Below, in pieces: positions 13,169 through 57,245 of a stretch of DNA of 64,000 nucleotides. The stretch is from Deltaproteobacteria bacterium (GTDB lineage Bacteria; Myxococcota_A; Polyangia; Polyangiales; Houyiibacteriaceae): contig JAEPMI010000002.1 in NCBI GenBank assembly GCA_017644045.1, positions 259,026-323,025 of the forward strand. Direction: 5' to 3'. The translations under genes and the position numbers were made by a program. The notes below the pieces were generated by a model. That model ran no database searches. It saw nothing but the letters and a program-made list of their open reading frames with translations, and was not told the DNA's origin. Position 1 is the first letter of the stretch. Every line of letters begins with the position of its first letter.

Positions 13169-13936
13169 CTAGAACGCGGAGCGCGCACCCTCGAGGCCGA
13201 AGCCGAGGAGCTCCACGGTGTGGCCGCCGGCCTTGTCCCGGAACTTCACCATGCCCGTCACGGGCACGGCGGGGTGGTGCCAGACGTCGGCCTCGATCTG
13301 CTGGCCCGCGAACTCGAGGGTGGTCTCCGAACGGCGTGCGTCGGGGAAAGTGCCCGCCCTGACGGTCACCTCTTCGGGCTCGCCGCTCAGCGGTCCGGGA
13401 AAGAGCATCTGCAGCCACTGCGCGAGCACCGGCTGGTAGTTGGGCAGGAGCCGCTCCTGCACGTCTTCGCGAGGCTGCCCCTGCCGATGGAACGAGAGCG
13501 CGAGGAGCTCGACGTCATCGCCATTCGGTCGGACCTGCATGCGGACGTGGTTCTGGCGGTTGCCGCGGCGGTCGGTGACCTCGAACCACCAGGTGTCGTT
13601 CTGCCGGTCGACGAAGCGGTACTCGGTGGTTGACCGGGCGCCTTCGCGCCAGGTCACGCCGTAGCGAACCCACTGACCGATGGCGGGCGCGATCATCTCG
13701 GCGCCGTCTTCGGCGGGGTCGAAGAGGCGGCCCGGTTCTTCTGGTTCCGACTCCGACTCGGACGCCGACTCCGACTCGGACGCCGACTCCGACTCGGACG
13801 CCGACTCGGACGCCGACTCGGACGCCGACGCCGACGCCGACTCCGACTCCGACTCCGACGCCGACTCTTGGGCCGACTCCGACTCGCCGGAGCAGGCCAC
13901 GAGCAGCATCAGGATCCACGGCAGCGGCGCACGCAT
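13169..13936 (-). CDS. lipoprotein with (SE/SA)n linker, unknown function
   Basis: ATG at 13936. Lipobox LLVAC. About 40 aa of S-E/S-A repeats, then a globular domain. Confidence 0.75.
13747..13886. repeat. CCGACT/CCGACG/CGGACG hexanucleotide microsatellite (coding, in frame)
   Basis: Tandem hexamers are visible directly. They encode the SE/SA linker of the lipoprotein on the minus strand. Confidence 0.9.
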
Positions 13937-31904: not shown

Positions 31905-32531
31905 TCAGTCCTCGACGCAGTAGCCGCCGCTGCAGCTGAAGCCCGCAGGGCAGCCCGAGCCACACGTCGGTCGCTCGCAGCCGACGGCGCCACACACGTA
32001 GGGCGGCGGGCAAACGGTGGAGTCACAGGACGAATCGATCACGCAGCCGCTGCTACCGCAGCGGAAGCCAGGAGCGCAGTCGGCCGCGGTCGTGCAGTCA
32101 CGGACGCAGGCACCGAAGGCGTTGCAGTCGGTCCCCGTCGGGCACGACGAGTCGTTGCATCCGATGCAGATGCCGCCCGGCGCCGAGAGGTTGCAGCTGC
32201 CGACCCCGCCGCAGTCGGCATCCGAGCGACACTGCACCGGCACGGGATCCGTCGTGGTCCCACCGTCGACCTCGGCGAACATGTCCGGCTCACGGAACAT
32301 GTCCGCTTCTTCGCCGCCGAGATCGGACTCGGTTCCGAGATCGGACTCGGTTCCCAGGTCGGACTCGGTTCCCAGATCGAGCTCGGTTCCGAGGTCCTGT
32401 CTCTCACCGCCGAGATCGACGTCCATCGACATGTCGCTCGCGGTGGCCATGTCCAACGGCTCGCGGCCGTCGTCGCCACAACCGAGAACGACGAGGAGAA
32501 GCAGAGTCAGCCAAGCTCGCATCCGTCGCAT
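31905..32531 (-). CDS. lipoprotein with DLGTES repeats and Cys-rich (myxobacterial-type) repeats
   Basis: ATG at 32531. Lipobox VVLGC. Four DLGTE(S/L) units, then CxxxxDCxxGxxC-type repeats. Confidence 0.75.
   Translation of the reverse strand: MRRMRAWLTLLLLVVLGCGDDGREPLDMATASDMSMDVDLGGERQDLGTELDLGTESDLGTESDLGTESDLGGEEADMFREPDMFAEVDGGTTTDPVPVQCRSDADCGGVGSCNLSAPGGICIGCNDSSCPTGTDCNAFGACVRDCTTAADCAPGFRCGSSGCVIDSSCDSTVCPPPYVCGAVGCERPTCGSGCPAGFSCSGGYCVED
32319..32396. repeat. 18-nt tandem repeat x4 (coding)
   Basis: GAGATCGGACTCGGTTCC twice, then CAGGTCGGACTCGGTTCC and CAGATCGAGCTCGGTTCC. Confidence 0.9.
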
Positions 32532-41122: not shown

Positions 41123-42022
41123 ATGACCAGCCGTTCCGTTCCTCAGAGCGCCCCCGTCGCGACCCTTCGTGACCTCGCCTCCCTCGCCAAGCCCCGCATC
41201 ACCCTGATGGTGGTCATCACGGCGGCAGGTGGGATGTTCCTGGCCCCAGGGGCGATCCCCCTGACGACGGCCCTGGTGATGCTGCTCACCACAGCGACCG
41301 TGGTGGCCGGCGCGAACTCGCTGAACTGCTGGCTCGAGCGCGACTCCGACCGCTTCATGCAGCGGACGATGGATCGCCCGCTGCCCGCCGGGCGGATGGA
41401 GCCGAAGGTCGCGATGGTCTTCGGTGCCTCGCTCGGCCTCCTCTCGGTGCCGGCGTTGACGCTTCTGGTGAACCCGACCACCGGTGCCCTCGGGGCGCTG
41501 GCGCTGGTCTCCTACGTCGCCGTCTACACGCCGATGAAGCAGCGCTCGTCGGTGGCGCTCCTGGTCGGTGCGATTCCGGGAGCTCTGCCCCCGCTGATGG
41601 GCTGGACCGCGACCACCGGCTCGATCGACGCGCCCGGCCTGGTCCTCTTCGGCATCCTCTTCTTCTGGCAGGTCCCGCACTTCCTCGCGATCTCGATCTA
41701 CCGCCAGAGCGAGTACGAGAAGGCTGGCCTCAAGACCCTCCCGGCAGAGCGCGGTCTGGGTGCCGCGAAGGCCCAGGCCTTCCTCTACACGGGCGCGCTC
41801 GTCGTCTGCACCGTGCTCCTCGCCTTCTTCCGCACCGCCGGCGTCATCTACCTCGCCGCGGCCGTCATCCTCGGCGCGCACTTCCTCTTCGTGGCCGCCC
41901 AGGGCTTCCGCATCGAAGAGCGCCCTGCCGTCGACAAGTGGGCCAGGAAGCTCTTCATCACGTCGCTCATCTACCTGACCGCGCTCTTCGCGGCGCTGAT
42001 GGTCGACGCCATCGTCCTCTGA
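41123..42022 (+). CDS. ctaB: protoheme IX farnesyltransferase (heme O synthase)
   Basis: UbiA-fold protein with NCWLERDSDRFMQRTMDRPLPAGR and YTPMKQRS motifs typical of CyoE/CtaB. Confidence 0.9.
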   Translation: MTSRSVPQSAPVATLRDLASLAKPRITLMVVITAAGGMFLAPGAIPLTTALVMLLTTATVVAGANSLNCWLERDSDRFMQRTMDRPLPAGRMEPKVAMVFGASLGLLSVPALTLLVNPTTGALGALALVSYVAVYTPMKQRSSVALLVGAIPGALPPLMGWTATTGSIDAPGLVLFGILFFWQVPHFLAISIYRQSEYEKAGLKTLPAERGLGAAKAQAFLYTGALVVCTVLLAFFRTAGVIYLAAAVILGAHFLFVAAQGFRIEERPAVDKWARKLFITSLIYLTALFAALMVDAIVL

Positions 42023-42024
42023 CG

Positions 42025-42579
42025 ATGCGCTGGCTCGCGCTGGTCTCGATCGCGCTGCTCGGCTGCTCGGAGCCGGAGCCGCCGCCGACCCTGCTGGAGG
42101 TGCCGGCGTTCGAGCTGACCAGCCAGGCGGGCGACGCCTTCGGCAGCGAGCAGCTCCAGGGCGAGGTGTGGATCGCCAACTTCATCTTCACCCGCTGCCC
42201 GACCATCTGTCCGCTGCTCACCAGCCAGATGAAGGGGCTCACGGACTCGCTCGCCGACACCCCCGTTCGCTTCGTCTCGTTCAGCGTGGACCCGGCGAAC
42301 GACACACCCGCGGTCCTGACCGAGTACGCCGAGCGCCACGGCGCGGACACCGCGCGCTGGACCTTTCTGACCGGCGACAACCACGCGCTCCAGGACGTCG
42401 TGGTCGAAGGCCTGCGCGTCCGCATGGGCAACGAACCGGACGAGACCGGCAACATCCTGCACGGCAGCCACTTCGTGCTGGTCGACGGGACCGGGACGAT
42501 CCGCGGCTACTACCAGTCGAACGTCGAAGGGCTCCGCGACATCGCGACGGACGCCCGGACGCTCACCGACTCGCACTGA
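42025..42579 (+). CDS. SCO1/SenC copper chaperone lipoprotein
   Basis: Lipobox ALLGC. FIFTRCPTICP CxxxC motif and the conserved H in GSHFVLVD. Confidence 0.9.
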   Translation: MRWLALVSIALLGCSEPEPPPTLLEVPAFELTSQAGDAFGSEQLQGEVWIANFIFTRCPTICPLLTSQMKGLTDSLADTPVRFVSFSVDPANDTPAVLTEYAERHGADTARWTFLTGDNHALQDVVVEGLRVRMGNEPDETGNILHGSHFVLVDGTGTIRGYYQSNVEGLRDIATDARTLTDSH

Positions 42580-42586
42580 GTCAGCA

Positions 42587-42893
42587 CCGAGCCGAACGCC
42601 GAACGTCGAGCGCCGCGTCGACGGAGTCGGTCAGGAGTCGGCCGTCGGGGCTCGGAGTCGGCCGTCGGAGTTCGGAGTCGGCCGTCGGAGTTCGGAGTCG
42701 GCCGTCGGAGTTCGGAGTCGGCCGTCGGAGTTCGGAGTCGGCCGTCGGAGTCGGCGTCGGCGTCGGCGTCGGAGTTCGGAGTCGGAGTTCGGAGTTCGGA
42801 GTCGGCCGTCGGCCGTCGGAGTCGGCCGTCGGAGTTCGGAGTTCGGAGTTCGGAGTTCGGGGTCGGAGTCGGAGTTCGGCGTTCGGCGTTCGG
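42587..42893. repeat. array A: ~40 tandem 6-7-nt units ending in TCGG (non-coding)
   Basis: Hand parse from 42621: spacers AG, CCG, AGT, CG or CGT, each followed by TCGG. The 20-mer GGAGTCGGCCGTCGGAGTTC is perfect four times at 42654-42733, with near copies on each side. Three opposite-sense CCGA units at 42587-42605 precede a short palindrome. Confidence 0.95.
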
Positions 42894-43130
42894 CTCTGGT
42901 CCGTTCAACCACTGGGGATCTGGTCTTTCGTCGTGGCCGCAACAGTCGGAGGTTCCCAATGACGATCGATTCTCTCTCGCTCGACGCTGTTTCGGCGGTC
43001 CATGAAGACGTCATGCCGATGCTTTCGCGGGTTTACTTACCCCGACCCCCGGGGCAGCCTCAGATCAGCAGGACGAGCCAGCCCCTTCACCCCTTGCCGG
43101 AGGCAAGCCGATGCGAAGCGAGGCGACACA
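42894..43130. other. unique, less GC-rich core between the two arrays
   Basis: No tandem units. Contains GGAGG-N6-ATG (42959), the palindrome CCCCGGGG (43047-43054) and the hairpin CTTGCC-GGA-GGCAAG (43093-43107). Confidence 0.8.
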
Positions 43131-43374
43131 CCGAAGTCCGACACCGACTGCCGACTGCCGAACGCCGACTGCCGAGCGCCGACGCCGAACGCCGAACGCC
43201 GACTGCCGAACTCCGACGCCGAACGCCGACGCCGAACGCCGAACGCCGACTGCCGAACTCCGACGCCGAACGCCGACTACCGAACGCCGAGACCCGACGC
43301 CGAACGCCGACGCCGAACGCCGAGACCCGACGCCGAACACCGACTACCGAACGCCGACCACCGAGAGCCGACTA
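43131..43374. repeat. array B: 36 tandem 6-7-nt units beginning with CCGA (mirror image of array A, non-coding)
   Basis: Hand parse: CCGAACG, CCGACG, CCGACTG, CCGAACT, CCGAGAC and others. There is an exact 47-nt higher-order duplication (43179-43225 = 43226-43272). The array ends at the cpoB stop codon. Confidence 0.95.
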
Positions 43375-44220
43375 AGACGTGCAGGCGCTGCGCGGCGCCT
43401 GGTTGATCTGCCGCAGCTTCCGCCGCGCATCGTCCCGCAGCGGCGATCGCCGATGCCCGCGGATCAATGCCTCCAGCGCCGCCTTCGCGTCCGTGCATGC
43501 ATGGAGCTGGAAGAACGCGTCGGCCATGTCGAAGAGCGCCTCGTCGACGGCGTCACCGCTCGCGTAGTTGGTGATCACCCGGCGGAACTCCCCGAGCGCG
43601 TTCGCCGGCCGGCGCTCGAGCAGGTAGGCCTTGCCCACCCAGTACTGCGCGTCGTCGGTCTGGTCGTCCTCGGGGTAGCGGCGGATGAACTCGCGGAAGA
43701 GCGCGCGCGCCTGAGAGTGCTCGCCGGCTTCGATCGCACGGCGCGCCGCGGCGAAGTGCTCGTCCTTCCCGTCGGGGATCTGCGAGTCGTCGACCGCCAT
43801 GTCCACGCCGGCCTTCTGAGCGAAGCGGCGGATCTGGGCGTCGAAGGCCTGCTGCTGCTCGCCCATCTGGCGCTGGGTGTTCGCGAGCTCGTTCTGCAGC
43901 TCGGCGAGGCTGCCCTCGACCGCCTGCAGCTGCTCACGCAGCTGGATCACCTCGGTGCCGAGGTCCGCGCTGTTGCGCGTGACCACGGCGGTCGCCTGCT
44001 CGAGCACTTCTTGGAGCTCGGCGACCTTGGTCTCGGCGGTCTCGAGCGCCGCGTCCATGCGCTGGCGGGTCTCGGCGATGCCGGTCTCCAGGGCTTCCAG
44101 CCGCGCGTTCTGCTCGGCCAGCTTCTCCTCGAGCGCGTCCCCCTTGGCCTTTGGGTAGCAACCGCCGAGCGCGAGCGCGGCGGTCAACCCCAGGATCCAG
44201 TGCTGCGGGCGGGCGGTCAT
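43372..44220 (-). CDS. cpoB: Tol-Pal system protein CpoB/YbgF (coiled coil + TPR)
   Basis: ATG 44220 overlaps the pal stop (ATGA). Lipobox-like ALGGC, a long coiled coil, and a C-terminal TPR-like AQYWVGKAYLL...DEALFDMADAFFQL. Confidence 0.8.
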   Translation of the reverse strand: MTARPQHWILGLTAALALGGCYPKAKGDALEEKLAEQNARLEALETGIAETRQRMDAALETAETKVAELQEVLEQATAVVTRNSADLGTEVIQLREQLQAVEGSLAELQNELANTQRQMGEQQQAFDAQIRRFAQKAGVDMAVDDSQIPDGKDEHFAAARRAIEAGEHSQARALFREFIRRYPEDDQTDDAQYWVGKAYLLERRPANALGEFRRVITNYASGDAVDEALFDMADAFFQLHACTDAKAALEALIRGHRRSPLRDDARRKLRQINQAPRSACTS

Positions 44221-44979: not shown

Positions 44980-47304
44980 ATGAGCCCCCACACACCCCAA
45001 TGTGCTACCCTCGTCCCTCCTCCCCCGATGAGCAGATTCGACGCAGGTCCCGACGGTCCGGTCACCGGGGACACCGAGATCTGCGCGTTTCACGCCCTCG
45101 AATCGGTGATCGCGATGCTGGCGAATACCCGCCGGCTCCTCGCTCTCGAGGTGGGCGCGTTGGTGGGGATGGAGCTCTGCGAGCGAGCCCTCGAGGGGAA
45201 CGCCATCGGCACCCACGCGGTCCAGATCGACGTGATCGGCCATCTCCGGGTGACCCGGGCCATCCGGCCCGACGACGGAGGCCTGCTCGAGACGCTGAAC
45301 GCGTGGGAACGGGCCATCCACCCCCGCGGTCGGGAGCAGTTCCGGCGAGCGCTCCGGGACACCCCGGCCTCGCTCCAGGGCCAGGACCTGATGCTCTTCC
45401 TCCGGGACCGCTTCGCGGGCCTCCTCTACCCCATCGACCGGGTCTCGGCGCGGACCAGCCTGGCGGGGGCCATCGAGCTCGCCTCGCGGGAGGCAGCGCT
45501 CCTCGACACCGGTAAGCGCGAGCGCGTCGACCCGGACGCTCCGGACTTCGACGACCTCTCCACCAGCCGCGGCATCGGTCCGGCGAGCGTGGAGCACATC
45601 CTCTCCGGCCTCGACGACTCGGTCTTCATGAACGCCGAGACCCGTCTGCGGGTCGAGGCCTATGGAGGTCCTGGCGCCCCGGACTTCGCCGACCTCACCA
45701 CCGACGAAGTCACCAGCGAGGAGCCGCACTCGCTCGAGGTCGCGCTGCTGGGGCCCTCGCCGAGCGAGGCACCGGTCCGGCAGGTCGGCCAGTTCGAGAT
45801 CTTCGGTCGCCTCGGCGAGGGAGGCATGGCGGAAGCCCTCCTCGCGCGCCACGTCGACGGGGGCGCCCCCTTCGTGCTCAAGCGCCTCCTTCCGGAGGCC
45901 GCGGCGGACCCCAGCCTCCTGCGGATGTTCGAGGACGAAGCGCGCCTCGGTCTCTTCCTGGACCACGAGCACATCGCCCGGGTGCTCGAGTACGTCCCGG
46001 GACCGCAGCCCCTGATGAAGATGGAGTGGGCGCCCGGTCTCACGCTGGCGAAGCTGATGAAGCGCTCGCGCGAGGCGAGCACCCCCATCCCACTCGACGT
46101 GATCCTGCGGGTCGGTGACGCGGTCAGCTCTGCCCTCGCCTACGCCCATGGCGCGCGAGGGATGGACGGGCGCCCACTGCGCGTCGTCCACCGCGACGTG
46201 AGCCCGCAGAACGTGGTCCTCCAGTGGGACGGCCACATCAAGCTGCTCGACTTCGGCGTCGCCCGGAGCGCGGTTCAGGCCGAGCACTCGGAGGCCGGCG
46301 TCATCAAGGGCAAGTTCGCCTACATGGCGCCCGAGCAGTCGCTCGGCATGCCGCTCGACGACCGCGCCGACGTCTTCTGCGTGGGCATCTGCCTCTACGA
46401 GGCGCTGAGCGGCAAGCGCCTCTTCGACAGCGACGAGCGGTTGGCGGCGGTTCGCGCGCTGGCCGAGGGCCCGATCCCCGACATCCGCCGGCACCGGCCG
46501 GAAGTCAGCGAGGAGCTCGCGACCCTGGTGCGCCGCTGCCTGGCCTCCGACCCGAAGAACCGTCCGCACATGGACGAGCTCCACGACGAGCTCCAGGCCC
46601 TCCGCCGCCGGCACCGCGCCCGTCGTCAGTCCGTGGTCGACATCGTCCGGACCTACGAGCCCGGCTGGGAGGACTGGCGCCGCGCGCTCTCGCCCACCGA
46701 CCGGCCGACGATGGCGCCGCCCGGCCCGGCACGGGAGCGGGGCAAACGAACGGAAGAGGGCCTCCGCCCGATCCAGCCGCGGGGCCCGAGTCTCTGGACC
46801 CGCATGTGGCCCGCGCTGCTGCTGATCGCGTCGTTCGTAGTCGGTGCCGCCACCTATGCGCTCATCCGCAGCGCGACCGCCCCCGACCCGGTTCCGGATG
46901 TGCCGGCGCCGGTCGAGAGCAGCCCGGTATCGATGCCGGCGTCCGTAACCGACTCCGACTCCGACTCCGACGACCGAGAGCCGACCGCCGAAGCCGACTC
47001 CGAAAGTCGAGCGCCGACTGCCGACCACCGAGAGCCGACCGCCGAAGCCGATTCCGAGAGCCGAGCGCCGACCGCCGAGGCCGAGGACGCCACGGGCACC
47101 CTCCTCATCCGCACCCACCCCCGCGGCGCGCGCGTCACGCTGGACGGAGTCCGACTCCGCGGCCGAACCCCCGAGCGCTGGACGATCCCTGCCGGGCCGC
47201 ACCGCGTTCAGATCTTCCGCGTGGGACACCGGCCGGAGACCCGTCACATCGTGACGGAGCCCGACAGCGGGGGGATGCTCGACATCCGGCTCCGTCGGCG
47301 TTGA
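44980..47304 (+). CDS. Ser/Thr protein kinase with TM segment, acidic repeat linker and C-terminal PEGA domain
   Basis: GEGGMAEALLA, VLKRL, HRDVSPQNVV, DFGVAR and APEQ. TM LWTRMWPALLLIASFVVGAATYALI. PEGA-like GTLLIRTHPRGARVTLDG...GPHRVQIFRVGH. Start is uncertain (ATG 44980 or 45028); the ORF-track start overlaps pal. Confidence 0.85.
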   Translation: MSPHTPQCATLVPPPPMSRFDAGPDGPVTGDTEICAFHALESVIAMLANTRRLLALEVGALVGMELCERALEGNAIGTHAVQIDVIGHLRVTRAIRPDDGGLLETLNAWERAIHPRGREQFRRALRDTPASLQGQDLMLFLRDRFAGLLYPIDRVSARTSLAGAIELASREAALLDTGKRERVDPDAPDFDDLSTSRGIGPASVEHILSGLDDSVFMNAETRLRVEAYGGPGAPDFADLTTDEVTSEEPHSLEVALLGPSPSEAPVRQVGQFEIFGRLGEGGMAEALLARHVDGGAPFVLKRLLPEAAADPSLLRMFEDEARLGLFLDHEHIARVLEYVPGPQPLMKMEWAPGLTLAKLMKRSREASTPIPLDVILRVGDAVSSALAYAHGARGMDGRPLRVVHRDVSPQNVVLQWDGHIKLLDFGVARSAVQAEHSEAGVIKGKFAYMAPEQSLGMPLDDRADVFCVGICLYEALSGKRLFDSDERLAAVRALAEGPIPDIRRHRPEVSEELATLVRRCLASDPKNRPHMDELHDELQALRRRHRARRQSVVDIVRTYEPGWEDWRRALSPTDRPTMAPPGPARERGKRTEEGLRPIQPRGPSLWTRMWPALLLIASFVVGAATYALIRSATAPDPVPDVPAPVESSPVSMPASVTDSDSDSDDREPTAEADSESRAPTADHREPTAEADSESRAPTAEAEDATGTLLIRTHPRGARVTLDGVRLRGRTPERWTIPAGPHRVQIFRVGHRPETRHIVTEPDSGGMLDIRLRRR
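46949..47088. repeat. CCGAC-type microsatellite plus 54-nt duplication (coding)
   Basis: CCGACT x3, then two copies encoding REPTAEADSESRAPTA. Contains the 20-mer GCCGACCACCGAGAGCCGAC (47020-47039), identical to 43353-43372. Confidence 0.85.
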
Positions 47305-55907: not shown

Positions 55908-57245
55908 GTGAGACGACCCATGCGATTCCGACCCCACAACCTGGTCCCGTACCTCGCGGTGGTCGCCATGCTCGGCGGCTGCACGATTCACCACGTCCGC
56001 ACCACCGGCACGGTACGCGCCAGCGGCAGCGTACGTGTGACCACCCCCACCTACGTCACGGTCGCCGACGCACCGCCGCCCCTGAAGCCCGCCGTCCAGA
56101 CCCGACCGGCGGCGAGCGGGTCCGTGTGGATCGAAGGCCACTGGTCGTGGAACGGCGGCTGGGTCTGGGCCGATGGCCACTGGGATACTCCTCCGCAGCC
56201 CGGCTACGTGTGGGAGCCCCCCGTGTGCGTCGCCGTCGCGGACGGCGGCTACCAGTTCCACCGCGGGTACTGGCGACCGCAGAACCAGGAGCCGCCTGCG
56301 ATCTACCGGACCGACGGAACGATCCGAGTGCATGTCCGCCCCGCCGACGAGCCGGCTCGCGCCAACCGCGTGGTCGTGACCGCCCGTGAGCCTGCGCCGC
56401 GGGGTACCGTCGTCGTCACGTCCCGCGCGCCCGAGGGCAACTCCTCCTCCGTGACCGTCACGAGCCGCCCCGCCAACGGCAGCGCCACGGTCACCACCCG
56501 CCCCGCCAACGGTAGCGCCACGGTCACGACGCGGCCGGCGAACGGTGGCGCGACCGTCACCACGCGCCCGTCCAACGGTGGCGCGACCGTCACCACGCGC
56601 CCGTCCAACGGTGGCGCGACCGTCACCACGCGCCCGTCCAACAACGGCGGCGCCACGGTCCGCACCCGGCCCGGCGACAACACCGCGACCGCGACCACCA
56701 CCGTGCGACCCGCGTCCACCGCGCGTGGCAACAACGCCAGCGCCAACACCACCGTGCGACCCGCGTCCACCGCGCGTGGCAACAACGCCAGCGCCAACAC
56801 CACCGTGCGGCCCGCGTCCACCGCGCAGGGCAACAACGCCAGCGCCAACACCACCGTGCGACCCGCGTCCACCGCCCGCGGCAACAACGCCAGCGCCAAC
56901 ACCGCGGTCCGCCCTGCGTCGACGGCGCGCGGCTACAACGCCAGCGCCAACACCACCGTGCGGACCCCCGCCCCGAACGACAACCCGGGCATGCAGACCG
57001 GCGGCCCGCGCAGCTGCAGCCTCGCGGTCGCCGTCCTTCCGCGCAATGGTGTGCTGGTCATCCGCGGCTCGGGCCTCGCGGCCGCGACCGGCGTGATGAT
57101 CGGCTCGCAGCGGGTGCCCCTCCTCGACAAGCGAGACGACCGCGTCCGTGCGCGCGTTCAGGGCCGCAACCACGGCGGCAGTGTCCGCGTGCTCTTCGGC
57201 AACGACCGCGAGGAGTGCGGCTCGCTCCGCATCACCGGTCGCTGA
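55908..57245 (+). CDS. lipoprotein with YXWGXW-type motif, two tandem-repeat families and an IPT/TIG-like C-terminal domain
   Basis: Lipobox MLGGC. WIEGHWSWNGGWVWADGHW. Six 11-aa and five 17-aa repeats. Confidence 0.8.
   Translation: MRRPMRFRPHNLVPYLAVVAMLGGCTIHHVRTTGTVRASGSVRVTTPTYVTVADAPPPLKPAVQTRPAASGSVWIEGHWSWNGGWVWADGHWDTPPQPGYVWEPPVCVAVADGGYQFHRGYWRPQNQEPPAIYRTDGTIRVHVRPADEPARANRVVVTAREPAPRGTVVVTSRAPEGNSSSVTVTSRPANGSATVTTRPANGSATVTTRPANGGATVTTRPSNGGATVTTRPSNGGATVTTRPSNNGGATVRTRPGDNTATATTTVRPASTARGNNASANTTVRPASTARGNNASANTTVRPASTAQGNNASANTTVRPASTARGNNASANTAVRPASTARGYNASANTTVRTPAPNDNPGMQTGGPRSCSLAVAVLPRNGVLVIRGSGLAAATGVMIGSQRVPLLDKRDDRVRARVQGRNHGGSVRVLFGNDREECGSLRITGR
56451..56651. repeat. 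33-nt tandem repeat x6 (coding, TVTTRP[AS]NG[SG]A)
   Basis: Units 56550-56582 and 56583-56615 are identical. Earlier units differ mostly at synonymous sites. Confidence 0.9.
56697..56951. repeat. 51-nt tandem repeat x5 (coding, TTVRPASTARGNNASAN)
   Basis: Units 56697-56747 and 56748-56798 are identical. Later units diverge. Confidence 0.9.

Follow-up and report, generated by a model that had tools for sequence, protein, structure and literature searches.

Paired, oppositely oriented 6/7-nt microsatellite arrays fill the convergent SCO1–cpoB gap of an uncultured myxobacterium

In an uncultured myxobacterium the whole of the 0.8-kb gap between the convergent SCO1 and cpoB genes is taken up by a repeat structure, in which two very long and fast-changing microsatellite arrays of 6- and 7-nt units lie in opposite orientation around a non-coding spacer. 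With about 250 bp per arm, the arrays are an extreme example of bacterial heptamer-class repeats, which are poorly understood, and a large case of a repeat type known elsewhere rather than a new kind of element. They probably represent a pair of hypervariable compound microsatellites whose expansion was confined to this species lineage and took place at a convergent junction that ancestrally measured 0–13 bp. An initial annotation of this DNA had listed four possible roles, namely a protein-binding platform, a giant cruciform or transcription barrier, a structured RNA and a hyper-expanded microsatellite, and the last is the only one that we find to fit the comparative data. On this reading no conserved function attaches to the structure, whose effects on transcripts are by-products, and the 0.8 kb is to be annotated as a hypervariable repeat and not as a conserved regulatory or segregation site. 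All coordinates refer to the window, the whole 64-kb stretch of DNA that was analysed.

Organization of the SCO1–cpoB gap

The left border of the gap is a gene for a SCO1/SenC-family lipoprotein (42025–42579, forward strand; Pfam PF02630, E = 1.4e-28), called with 184 residues in public assemblies and ending in a stop codon at 42577–42579. Its right border is a cpoB/ybgF-like TPR lipoprotein gene (43372–44220, reverse strand; Pfam TPR_6, TPR_16 and YfiO) that forms the end of a pal–cpoB unit; the exact CpoB protein is present in public assemblies, and some of its homologues (n = 169) carry the label TolA-binding protein. The neighbouring genes are ctaA, a kinase, ctaB, SCO1, cpoB, pal, a kinase and genes of exbB/exbD/tonB type.

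A CCGAC unit already lies inside the last SCO1 codons (ACC GAC TCG CAC), and a short CCGA-oriented stretch, CCGAGCCGAACGCCGAACGTCGA, is found beyond the stop at 42587–42610 (forward strand). This stretch has the polarity of the right-hand array, is detected by Tandem Repeats Finder (TRF) with period 7 at 42591–42615, and is complementary at 17 of 17 positions to the right end of the left-hand array (42880–42896). An inverted repeat located here (I21) is 89% complementary, and in the predicted RNA fold the stretch closes a hairpin around the left-hand array. Degenerate units (TCGA, TCAGG) at 42611–42637 separate it from array A proper, 39 TCGG units at 42638–42893 (forward strand), delimited by unit spacing and TRF, whose G/T-rich strand is the SCO1 sense strand. 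A unique core of 237 bp follows (42894–43130, not assigned to a strand), marked by its GC profile (about 0.60) and non-coding by codon bias. Array B, delimited in the same way as array A, comprises 36 CCGA units at 43131–43371 as read on the forward strand, its reverse complement (TCGG) being the cpoB sense strand, and its last unit touches the cpoB stop codon at 43372–43374. The layout proposed initially, two arrays around a lower-GC core that fill the space between the convergent gene ends, is borne out by these coordinates and unit counts: some 40 units had been placed at 42621–42893, where 39 perfect TCGG cores are found from 42638 onward, the 36 units claimed for array B correspond to 36 perfect CCGA cores, and the core, put at about 235 bp and less GC-rich, measures 237 bp with a GC content of 0.57–0.64 against 0.70 for the window.

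Repeat units and the relation between the two arms

Units in both arrays are spaced by 6 or 7 nt and by no other distance. The tetramer core is perfect in all 75 units, while the 2–3-nt spacer gives 16 distinct unit types, three of which (CCGAACG, CCGACG and CCGAACT) are common to arrays A and B. TRF reports for array A a period of 20 nt with 12.1 copies and 84% matches (unit GGAGTCGGCCGTCGGAGTTC, score 326), and for array B a period of 47 nt with 4.4 copies and 89% matches (score 307) along with periods of 34 and 81 nt, reproducing the dominant periods of 20 and 47 nt named in the initial annotation. The pattern CCGAN3CCGAN3CCGA occurs 38 times in the window, compared with 0.06 matches expected from shuffles, and every one of these matches falls within array A, array B or a third array at 46949–47084. 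Both arrays are head-to-tail tandem arrays of the kind known as long simple sequence repeats (6–9-nt units), and as a pair they place the same unit family on opposite strands of one intergenic region, as TCGG in the one and CCGA in the other.

The description of the arrays as mirror images holds for the polarity and composition of their units, but does not extend to a specific inverted duplication. Compared without gaps over 100 nt, B and the reverse complement of A reach an identity of 0.77 at most; shuffling the units yields 0.73 ± 0.04, and the observed value is reached in 18% of shuffles. Copying of one arm from the other is rejected on this ground, the arms being no more alike than unit-shuffled arrays. 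Neither is the suggested giant cruciform favoured, as arms that are only 71–78% complementary and 237 bp or more apart would be poorly suited to forming one.

Assembly support and copy number

The lengths of the arrays cannot be relied upon in this metagenome-assembled genome. In the scaffold as deposited at ENA, array A contains 100 N, at window position 42655/42656, where the window sequence has one 20-nt unit, so that the gap was silently closed with a single unit in this version. An independent Logan contig agrees with array B over its first 148 nt and breaks off there, and elsewhere Logan contigs run out about 100 nt beyond the SCO1 stop codon. Since assemblies fail in both arrays and a 100-N gap lies in A, the copy numbers of the arrays are not established.

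It is nevertheless extremely improbable that the arrays, or their mirrored arrangement, were made by an assembler. The scaffold gap in array A and the short-read contigs that stop inside both arrays would accord with such an artefact, as would a mirrored case among public genomes (L110) in the form of a perfect palindrome, typical of fold-back artefacts; this case is probably an assembly fold-back and was therefore left out as evidence. Against it, three independent assemblies and a second sample enter the arrays from the unique flanks with the same sequence, and the two arms are imperfect and unlike each other, contrary to what fold-back produces. In addition, the adjacency of SCO1 and cpoB is kept in all relatives, and related arrays occupy the same site in relatives that come from other projects.

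Coding potential

The claim that the gap holds no credible gene is upheld by low GC3 values and by the lack of gene calls, Pfam matches and true homologues. ORFs of 127–371 residues do run on through the arrays, since the units are free of stop codons, and the assertion that mixed units break every reading frame is to that extent imprecise; what stands is the lack of a coding signature. The gap ORFs have a GC3 of 0.60–0.72, compared with 0.94–0.96 in SCO1 and cpoB, the core has 0.54–0.72 over all six frames, and the intergenic arrays have 0.66–0.68. Gene callers in public assemblies place no gene in the gap, the core ORFs find no match in Pfam, and the sole match of a core ORF among 1.84 billion representative proteins is a eukaryote-like repeat protein judged to be spurious.

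A real or decayed low-complexity protein rich in Arg, Pro and Thr, encoded at 42959–43375 (forward strand) or 43014–42631 (reverse strand), would be in keeping with the frames that run unbroken through both arrays, with a Shine-Dalgarno-like GGAGG 6 nt 5' of the ATG at 42959, with similar units that code for real linkers elsewhere in the window, and with the gene found at the same position in the closest relative. It is contradicted by the GC3 values, the search results and the gene calls given above, and by periods of 47 and 20 nt that are not multiples of 3, so that a coding reading of the gap is close to refuted. The initial annotation had held that an intact gene at the orthologous site would mark the arrays as the debris of a low-complexity gene. 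Such a gene does exist in the closest relative, where it encodes a DUF2330 protein, but neither the arrays nor the core shows any similarity to it; searches of the window with DUF2330 (tblastn) and with that relative's flanks (blastn) returned nothing significant in the region. As the DUF2330 gene does not resemble the arrays or the core, and no gene is present here in more distant relatives, the arrays are not a decayed gene. An 18-nt match adjoining the cpoB stop in L003, GGCGACACACCGRAG, was treated as chance because of its E value of 0.11 and its wrong orientation.

The junction in relatives and in a second sample

SCO1 and cpoB lie side by side in every relative, and the repeat region between them is not a conserved element. 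In the closest relative (96% cpoB identity) there is no array and the unrelated DUF2330 gene occupies the junction. In the relative at 90%, about 22 CTCGG units, all of one orientation, make up an array of 165 bp, and in that at 84% a TCGG array follows directly upon the cpoB stop. The two genes overlap at 69%, and are parted by 12–13 bp in three relatives at 65%, in each case with no array. In a second sample (L249), with flanks that are 99.3% identical, the units of array A follow one another in a different order. The region therefore varies between close relatives, as seen in L249 and in the 90%, 84% and 96% relatives, all of them short-read assemblies, and the locus would suit strain typing as a VNTR marker in this lineage. 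An array with a TCGG core is present at this same site in three lineages (84%, 90% and 100% cpoB identity), and it could be that persistence under selection, rather than repeated origin, underlies this recurrence.

Comparison with repeats of other bacteria

Heptamers are over-represented among bacterial simple sequence repeats, with units such as GGGAATC in Xanthomonas and GGGGAYT in Nostoc/Anabaena (Rehm et al. 2015, PMC4692102). Of the Xanthomonas heptamer arrays, 89–93% are intergenic, at an average of 28 nt from the neighbouring ORF; their G-rich strand is preferentially found downstream on the coding strand, their length and sequence differ between close species, and 70–75 cases per genome consist of two nearby arrays in convergent (inverted) orientation (PMC4692102). 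Paired repeats of the Xanthomonas type are characterised by G3–4 tracts in each unit that can form G-quadruplexes, and by a family of about 100–200 loci in the host genome (PMC4692102). The statement that no element with this layout had been described is consequently superseded, paired inverted heptamer arrays being already on record for Xanthomonas (PMC4692102). The gap arrays resemble those of Xanthomonas and Nostoc in their tandem 7-nt units, their G-rich strand, their intergenic position and their closeness to an ORF end, and resemble those of Xanthomonas also in that some lie between convergent ORFs, that inverted pairs occur and that close relatives differ. They are, however, far longer, at 39 and 36 units; the longest arrays have 14 units in Xanthomonas and 26 in Anabaena (PMC4692102). 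Further differences from the Xanthomonas arrays are the mixed 6/7-nt units with an invariant 4-nt core and free spacers, the higher-order periods of 20 and 47 nt, GG runs in place of the G3–4 tracts of a quadruplex former, the 237-bp unique core that parts the arms, and the host, an uncultured Myxococcota bacterium.

Short tandemly repeated repetitive (STRR) heptanucleotides are known from heterocystous cyanobacteria such as Calothrix PCC 7601 (cited in PMC4692102). They share with the gap arrays a build of tandem heptamers, a dispersal over non-coding regions and a restriction to particular lineages. Their arrays, reportedly described by Mazel and colleagues in 1990 as homogeneous, short and part of a family with many loci per genome, differ from the gap arrays in being homogeneous and short, and their unit sequences are unrelated. 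Direct heptamer repeats of the type TAACTGA occur in Beggiatoaceae, cyanobacteria and Bacteroidetes, reaching up to 43 copies in some genomes, and have been suggested to bind a post-transcriptional regulator (MacGregor 2015, PMC4679880). These, too, are intergenic tandem heptamers, but they stand just upstream of start codons and almost always in direct sets (169, as opposed to one indirect repeat; PMC4679880), whereas the gap arrays come after stop codons and are mirrored. In the study of Borg elements (Schoelmerich et al. 2023, PMC9879509), tandem repeats are depicted as recently formed, of independent origins and fast-evolving, and as lying both between genes and in frame within genes, where they make disordered linkers. 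The kinase and lipoprotein linkers of the window behave in the same way, and the Borg repeats differ from the gap arrays in belonging to archaeal extrachromosomal elements, in their longer units and in having no mirrored architecture.

Heptamer and compound 6/7-nt arrays with a TCGG/CCGA core are found in at least 120 stretches of public genomes and in 117 metagenome stretches. Occurrence at hundreds of loci with no positional preference had been named at the outset as the mark of ordinary microsatellites, and arrays built in this way are indeed present at more than 230 loci, from many phyla and in every gene-orientation context (among the matches listed). About 85% of the public arrays listed are intergenic. 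Within the same set of listed matches, 23 of 58 lie within 30 nt of a stop codon and 7 of 52 within 30 nt of a start, and their polarity relative to the adjacent stop codon is unbiased (16 versus 12); flanking genes were classed here with an ORF caller relying on GC3, which had been validated against the window but is crude, especially as regards start codons. Mirrored array pairs recur (e.g., L028, L109, L168, L201 and L205), and in L109 mirrored heptamer arrays are situated in frame inside a helicase ORF.

RNA folding and transcription

No structured RNA of a known family is apparent in the region. A search of 42000–44000 against Rfam at a permissive E-value gave only chance-level matches, all outside the arrays and none reaching even half of any family's gathering score, and a tRNA/tmRNA scan found none in the region. 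The core folds no better than shuffles (z = +1.7 and +0.8 on the two strands), and the structured-RNA role offered initially was dropped on account of this result and that of the Rfam search. Motif scans of the core and the gap found no sigma-70 promoter, no sigma-54 motif and no intrinsic terminator. The only G runs in the units are GG, so that no three-layer G-quadruplex is possible, and ViennaRNA with G-quadruplex energies placed none in the minimum-energy fold of either strand. A CsrA sponge, considered for the GGA motifs of array A, was set aside, array B being without GGA and no csrA context having been seen.

The array transcripts themselves are predicted to fold with strong strand asymmetry. 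The UCGG-sense RNA of array A self-folds with z = -5.4 relative to shuffles and the corresponding cpoB-sense RNA of array B with z = -4.7, the arrays folding well only because of the self-complementarity of their repeats. The CCGA-sense RNA of array B is less structured than 200 of 200 shuffles (z = +5.26) and contains 44% C, 27% G and 4% U, with YC dimers at a density of 17 per 100 nt; for array A, the lack of structure in the CCGA sense is not out of the ordinary (z = +1.3). Each of the convergent mRNAs would accordingly gain a G/U-rich, strongly self-pairing 3' tail, and a transcript that reads through past the core would meet a C-rich, structure-free tract of the kind that Rho prefers. According to these folding models, the tails and the C-rich tract may contribute to separating the two transcription units.

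It is rather unlikely that the region has been selected for such an effect, as a bidirectional insulator or 3'-UTR module in which a G/U hairpin array would pause polymerase or block 3' exonucleases, and Rho, loading on the C-rich, unstructured sense of the opposite array, would stop read-through before it runs antisense into the other gene. The fold statistics of the UCGG senses and of the CCGA sense of array B are what such a module should display, the polarity is symmetric for both genes, a canonical intrinsic terminator was not found, public arrays tend to adjoin stop codons (among the matches listed), and the strand preference seen in Xanthomonas (Rehm et al. 2015, PMC4692102) is of the same sense. 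Yet the region lacks conservation: a junction of 0–13 bp, or an overlap of the genes, is enough in relatives, the 90% relative has a single orientation only, and the closest relative has a gene there instead. The listed public arrays show no polarity bias at the adjacent stop codon, the CCGA sense of array A does not share the exceptional looseness of array B, and any repeat that is G/U-rich on one strand and C/A-rich on the other automatically gives a folding asymmetry, which also weighs against selection for insulation. The nearest functional analogy for an insulator would be the REP/BIME elements of enterobacteria. These stand at gene 3' ends and convergent junctions in alternating orientation, and their RNA hairpins shield upstream mRNA and can contribute to termination. 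REP sequences are imperfect palindromes of 20–40 nt that form a conserved family mobilised by a RAYT transposase, unlike the tandem 6–7-nt units of the gap arrays, in which no REP-type traits were seen within the sequences covered.

Protein binding

The initial annotation also compared the locus to an iteron cluster or to the parC centromere of plasmid R1. In parC, the promoter of the neighbouring parMR genes lies between two groups of five direct repeats, each 11 bp long and all in one orientation. Two repeat clusters around a central core are common to both, but the gap arrays have units of 6–7 bp and inverted polarity, are chromosomal and not conserved, and have no par genes beside them: no par or rep domain (parMR, parAB, rep) was found among the neighbour genes. 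A binding platform for a centromere, iteron or nucleoid protein that reads the TCGG tetramer is very improbable. The tetramer is, it is true, invariant in 75 units while the spacers vary, the 20-nt period of array A comes near two helical turns, and same-site arrays in relatives keep the (C)TCGG core. Partition and replication genes are nonetheless missing from a neighbourhood of housekeeping operons, the region is absent from the closest relative and from all more distant ones, a spacing of 6–7 bp sets successive sites on different faces of the helix, no similarity to plasmids exists, and the same unit type is used inside coding linkers.

Proposed origin of the paired arrays

In the favoured reading, that of a pair of lineage-specific microsatellites, the arrays would change in length and in unit order through slipped-strand mispairing in the course of replication or repair, as suggested by the variation between assemblies and samples; part of this variation, from which slippage itself is deduced, could be assembly error. 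Uniform neutral mutation would spare no core, and the invariant tetramer consequently calls for either a microhomology argument or selection. The former is preferred here, TCGG/CCGA being the probable microhomology at which a slipped strand re-anneals. Selection that keeps the tetramer with free spacers, making of the arrays a slippage-tunable module that serves as an insulator or as a landing pad for a TCGG-binding protein, is decidedly unlikely. A single rearrangement, insertion or inversion, most likely accounts for the opposite polarity of the arms and for the 237-bp core; it would have taken place inside an originally single array like that still present in the 90% relative. In both arms the G-rich strand runs 5' to 3' in the direction of the core, as it would if ends grown by templated, core-anchored repeat addition had been fused head to head, a scheme that finds no support. 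The invariant 4-nt core with its free spacers and the strand asymmetry of RNA folding could make the locus usable for testing how such repeats grow and whether they affect transcription at convergent junctions.

It is also conceivable, though quite improbable, that the core is foreign, either the remnant of a mobile element with inverted arrays at its ends or DNA captured in the repair of a break. Its GC content lies below that of the window, and nothing in any relative is similar to it; insertion has recurred at this junction, as the DUF2330 gene of the 96% relative illustrates; the arrays have inverted polarity at the two ends; and the mirrored arrays of L109 were inserted in frame in the helicase ORF. 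On the other side, the core is single-copy in the window, the related loci and the plasmid and phage collections, and matches neither the rest of the window nor any plasmid or phage; there is no transposase or integrase nearby and no definable target-site duplication, the two arms show no specific relationship, and relatives have arrays alone at this site.

Related arrays elsewhere in the window

The third array (46949–47084, forward strand) consists of 20 CCGA units of mixed 6/7-nt length and is the same repeat phenomenon outside the intergenic structure. It lies in frame in a Ser/Thr kinase, in the linker joining a membrane helix and a PEGA domain. The same unit type is found in frame in two coding linkers of the window, that of the kinase and that of a lipoprotein, so that the arrays here are either non-coding, as in the gap, or in frame. 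Array loci number three in the 64-kb window of the source genome. The orthologous kinase linker in L003 is a regular 21-nt repeat encoding EEPTAEA.

Anatomy of the intergenic region

The window (G+C 70%), whose protein homologues carry the labels Myxococcota or Polyangiaceae, is also represented by scaffold_12 (679 kb) of the ENA metagenome assembly ERZ23500317. Two convergent genes border the repeat region, a SCO1/SenC lipoprotein gene on the left (42025–42579, + strand; Pfam E = 1.4e-28) that closes a ctaA-kinase-ctaB-SCO1 series, and a cpoB/ybgF-like TPR lipoprotein gene on the right (43372–44220, − strand) that is the last member of a pal-cpoB unit, with an exbB/exbD/tonB-type cluster farther out on the cpoB side. 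The 792 bp from the SCO1 stop to the cpoB stop fall into five parts: a short CCGA-oriented stretch next to the SCO1 stop (42587–42610), sharing the polarity of array B; a few degenerate units (42611–42637); array A (42638–42893), with 39 perfect TCGG cores spaced 6 or 7 nt apart and resolved by TRF into 12 copies of a period-20 unit, GGAGTCGGCCGTCGGAGTTC; a 237-bp core (42894–43130; GC 0.57–0.64); and array B (43131–43371), with 36 perfect CCGA cores and periods of 47, 34 and 81 nt, the last unit of which touches the cpoB stop codon. A three-unit heptamer pattern is matched 38 times in the window versus 0.06 expected, exclusively within arrays A and B and a third array in a kinase gene. Together with the core counts, this confirms the initial annotation as to two arrays of opposite polarity filling a convergent gap. 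Its description of them as mirror images holds for polarity and unit family, the arms sharing the unit types CCGAACG, CCGACG and CCGAACT, but does not extend to a specific inverted duplication. The latter is ruled out, since the best 100-nt ungapped identity between reverse-complemented A and B (0.77) compares with 0.73 ± 0.04 for unit-shuffled arrays and is equalled or exceeded by 18% of the shuffles.

The tetramer core is perfect in 75 of 75 units of the two arrays, the spacers generating 16 unit types, and in the array of a close relative (L004, 2280–2440) a 5-nt CTCGG is likewise invariant in every unit while its spacer of 1–3 nt varies freely. If a microsatellite changed by simple neutral point mutation, an invariant core with free spacers would not be expected.

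Assembly support

Unit counts for both arrays are as assembled in the window and do not fix copy number. In ENA the scaffold has identical flanks (over 4129 and 5849 nt) and carries 100 N inside array A, where the window (42655/42656) holds exactly one 20-nt unit, so that in the window array A has been either gap-closed or collapsed. Contigs that Logan re-assembled from the same run end 148 nt into array B and ~100 nt beyond the SCO1 stop. The existence of the arrays is nonetheless secure, because several assemblies run from unique flanking DNA into the arrays and give the same sequence. Metagenome assemblies often break at short-unit arrays of this kind: among the public-scan matches listed, 61 of the 133 CCGA/TCGG arrays found in high-GC contigs have a contig end no more than 150 nt away.

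The junction in relatives

Decisive for the nature of the region was a comparison of orthologous cpoB–SCO1 junctions, fetched from relatives and ranked by cpoB identity. At 65% (L127, L128, L129) the two stop codons are 12–13 bp apart, and at 69% (L006) the genes overlap. At 84% (L005) a TCGG array begins 10 nt past the cpoB stop, after which the contig ends, and at 90% (L004) the junction consists of 165 bp, or ~22 CTCGG-core units in a single orientation. The 96% relative (L003, GCA_964462035.1) is without an array, and the gap is filled by a 555-aa DUF2330 gene (6962–8629 of contig CAYXAP010000007.1) encoding a signal peptide and a C-terminal membrane anchor. In a second sample of the window's own species (L249, DRR378781; flanking DNA 99.3% identical) the region starts alike, with a different unit order in array A, before the contig ends. 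A decayed gene is ruled out, as the DUF2330 gene resembles neither the arrays nor the core and the distant junctions are overlapping or 12–13 bp long; a conserved element is ruled out by the same comparison. The 0.8-kb structure is instead a recent, lineage-specific and fast-changing expansion of a junction whose ancestral length was near zero. Both insertions and repeat expansion have a hotspot at this junction in the genus-level clade.

Coding, RNA and signal content

The mixed unit lengths had been thought to break every reading frame, yet ORFs of 127–371 aa stay open across the arrays, since stop codons are absent from the units. The accompanying claim that no credible gene is present stands: these ORFs have a GC3 of 0.60–0.72 versus 0.94–0.96 in SCO1 and cpoB, match no Pfam family and are not called as genes in public assemblies, and a search of 1.84 billion representative proteins with the first 60 residues of the best candidate yielded nothing beyond a spurious repeat protein. 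A structured RNA, also suggested initially, is disfavoured, since Rfam families gave only chance-level matches (far under gathering scores, none within the arrays) and the core folds no better than shuffled sequence (z = +1.7 and +0.8). Searches of the region found no tRNA or tmRNA, sigma-70 promoter, intrinsic terminator or sigma-54 motif, no plasmid or phage similarity, and no G-quadruplex in the minimum-energy fold.

Similar arrays in other genomes

A five-unit CCGA-heptamer pattern is found in at least 120 stretches of species-representative genomes from many phyla, most of the arrays among the matches listed being homogeneous with 5–15 copies, and a compound 7-6-7-7-6 TCGG pattern is found in 117 stretches of JGI metagenomes, where some arrays reach 62 units. 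Classed with a crude GC3-based gene caller checked on the window, ~85% of listed arrays away from contig edges are intergenic, in tandem, convergent and divergent contexts. Among these matches array polarity shows no preference with respect to the neighbouring stop codon (16 vs 12), and the arrays are closer to stop codons than to start codons (23 of 58 vs 7 of 52 within 30 nt). Mirrored pairs recur, for example at L028, L109, L168, L201 and L205. One of these, in a Thermoanaerobaculia MAG (L028, DATISF010000020.1, 4184–4387), combines the mirrored layout with nearly the window's units in an unrelated phylum (GTTCGGA x5, a 57-nt spacer, CCGAACN x17), directly upstream of where a 184-aa − strand ORF starts. 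In a species-representative genome (L109, 7774–7869), a 96-nt stretch consists of mirrored (GGGGTCG)n and (CGACYCC)n arrays; it seems to be an in-frame insertion in a helicase-like ORF, which gains a ...ASGVGSRGSGVGAESKPATAASSDSRPPTPDSRS... segment. At a further locus (L110, 3294–3641), CCGACAT/ATGTCGG arrays lie within a perfect palindrome of several hundred bp around a GC-rich hairpin, which probably results from fold-back during assembly and is a caution for automated mirrored-repeat searches.

A study of Xanthomonas and Nostoc (Rehm et al. 2015, PMC4692102) reports an excess of heptamers among the simple sequence repeats of bacteria. Xanthomonas GGGAATC arrays are 89–93% intergenic, on average 28 nt from the neighbouring ORF, and 16% lie between convergent ORFs; their length and sequence differ between close species, the G-rich strand is preferentially downstream on the coding strand, two nearby arrays in convergent orientation occur 70–75 times per genome, and no function was found (PMC4692102). 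Intergenic TAACTGA arrays of up to 43 copies have also been reported (MacGregor 2015, PMC4679880). The belief that no element with this layout had been described is therefore superseded; the present pair belongs to a known kind, although it is unusual in size, mixed 6/7-nt units and host.

Origin and possible consequences

The region is a hyper-expanded, hypervariable compound microsatellite pair, striking yet ordinary. This reading, one of several offered initially, is upheld by the tandem higher-order structure, the hypervariability between strains and species, and the lack of coding or RNA-family signal and of conservation. The arrays probably lengthen and shorten through slipped-strand mispairing, with the invariant tetramer providing the microhomology at which a slipped 3' end would re-anneal. 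The two polarities and the core are most likely the trace of one insertion or inversion inside an array that was originally single, as in the 90% relative, and the short stretch of array B polarity beside the SCO1 stop fits this.

The UCGG-sense RNA of each array forms the 3' tail of the adjacent gene and folds far more stably than shuffled sequence (z = −5.4 for A, −4.7 for B). The CCGA sense of array B (C 44%, G 27%, U 4%) is less structured than 200 of 200 shuffles (z = +5.26; MFE −28 versus −48.8 ± 4 kcal/mol for dinucleotide shuffles, + strand, 43125–43371), a strong strand asymmetry. A read-through transcript would hence meet a structured tail, the core and then a C-rich unstructured tract that, on these predictions, would resemble a Rho loading site, and the two convergent units could in this way be insulated from each other. 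Yet base composition by itself accounts for the asymmetry, the CCGA sense of array A is unremarkable (z = +1.3), and relatives lack the region, so that insulation is possibly a by-product of the microsatellite pair rather than the reason for its existence. RNA spanning the whole region is predicted to form a giant imperfect hairpin (z = −8). Extrusion of the giant DNA cruciform once envisaged is unlikely, because the arms are 71–78% complementary and 237 bp or more apart.

Related repeats within the window

The third array, 20 in-frame CCGA units of mixed 6/7 nt (46949–47084; Ser/Thr kinase gene 45028–47304, + strand), encodes the linker between a membrane helix and a PEGA domain (PTAEADSES...; peptide ...DREPTAEADSESRAPTADHREPTAEADSESRAPTAEAE...). 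The 96% relative is instead built from a regular 21-nt EEPTAEA repeat at this position, a difference indicating ongoing remodelling of a coding linker by this type of repeat. An in-frame TCGG/GCCGAC hexamer array (13746–13886) in a predicted lipoprotein gene (13169–13936, − strand) encodes a low-complexity (SE/SA)n linker right after the lipobox cysteine. Other tandem repeats lie at 32317–32393 (period 18 nt) and 56454–56967 (periods 33/66/99 and 51 nt), part of the latter being covered by a candidate − strand ORF from the crude gene caller, with an odd-looking peptide.
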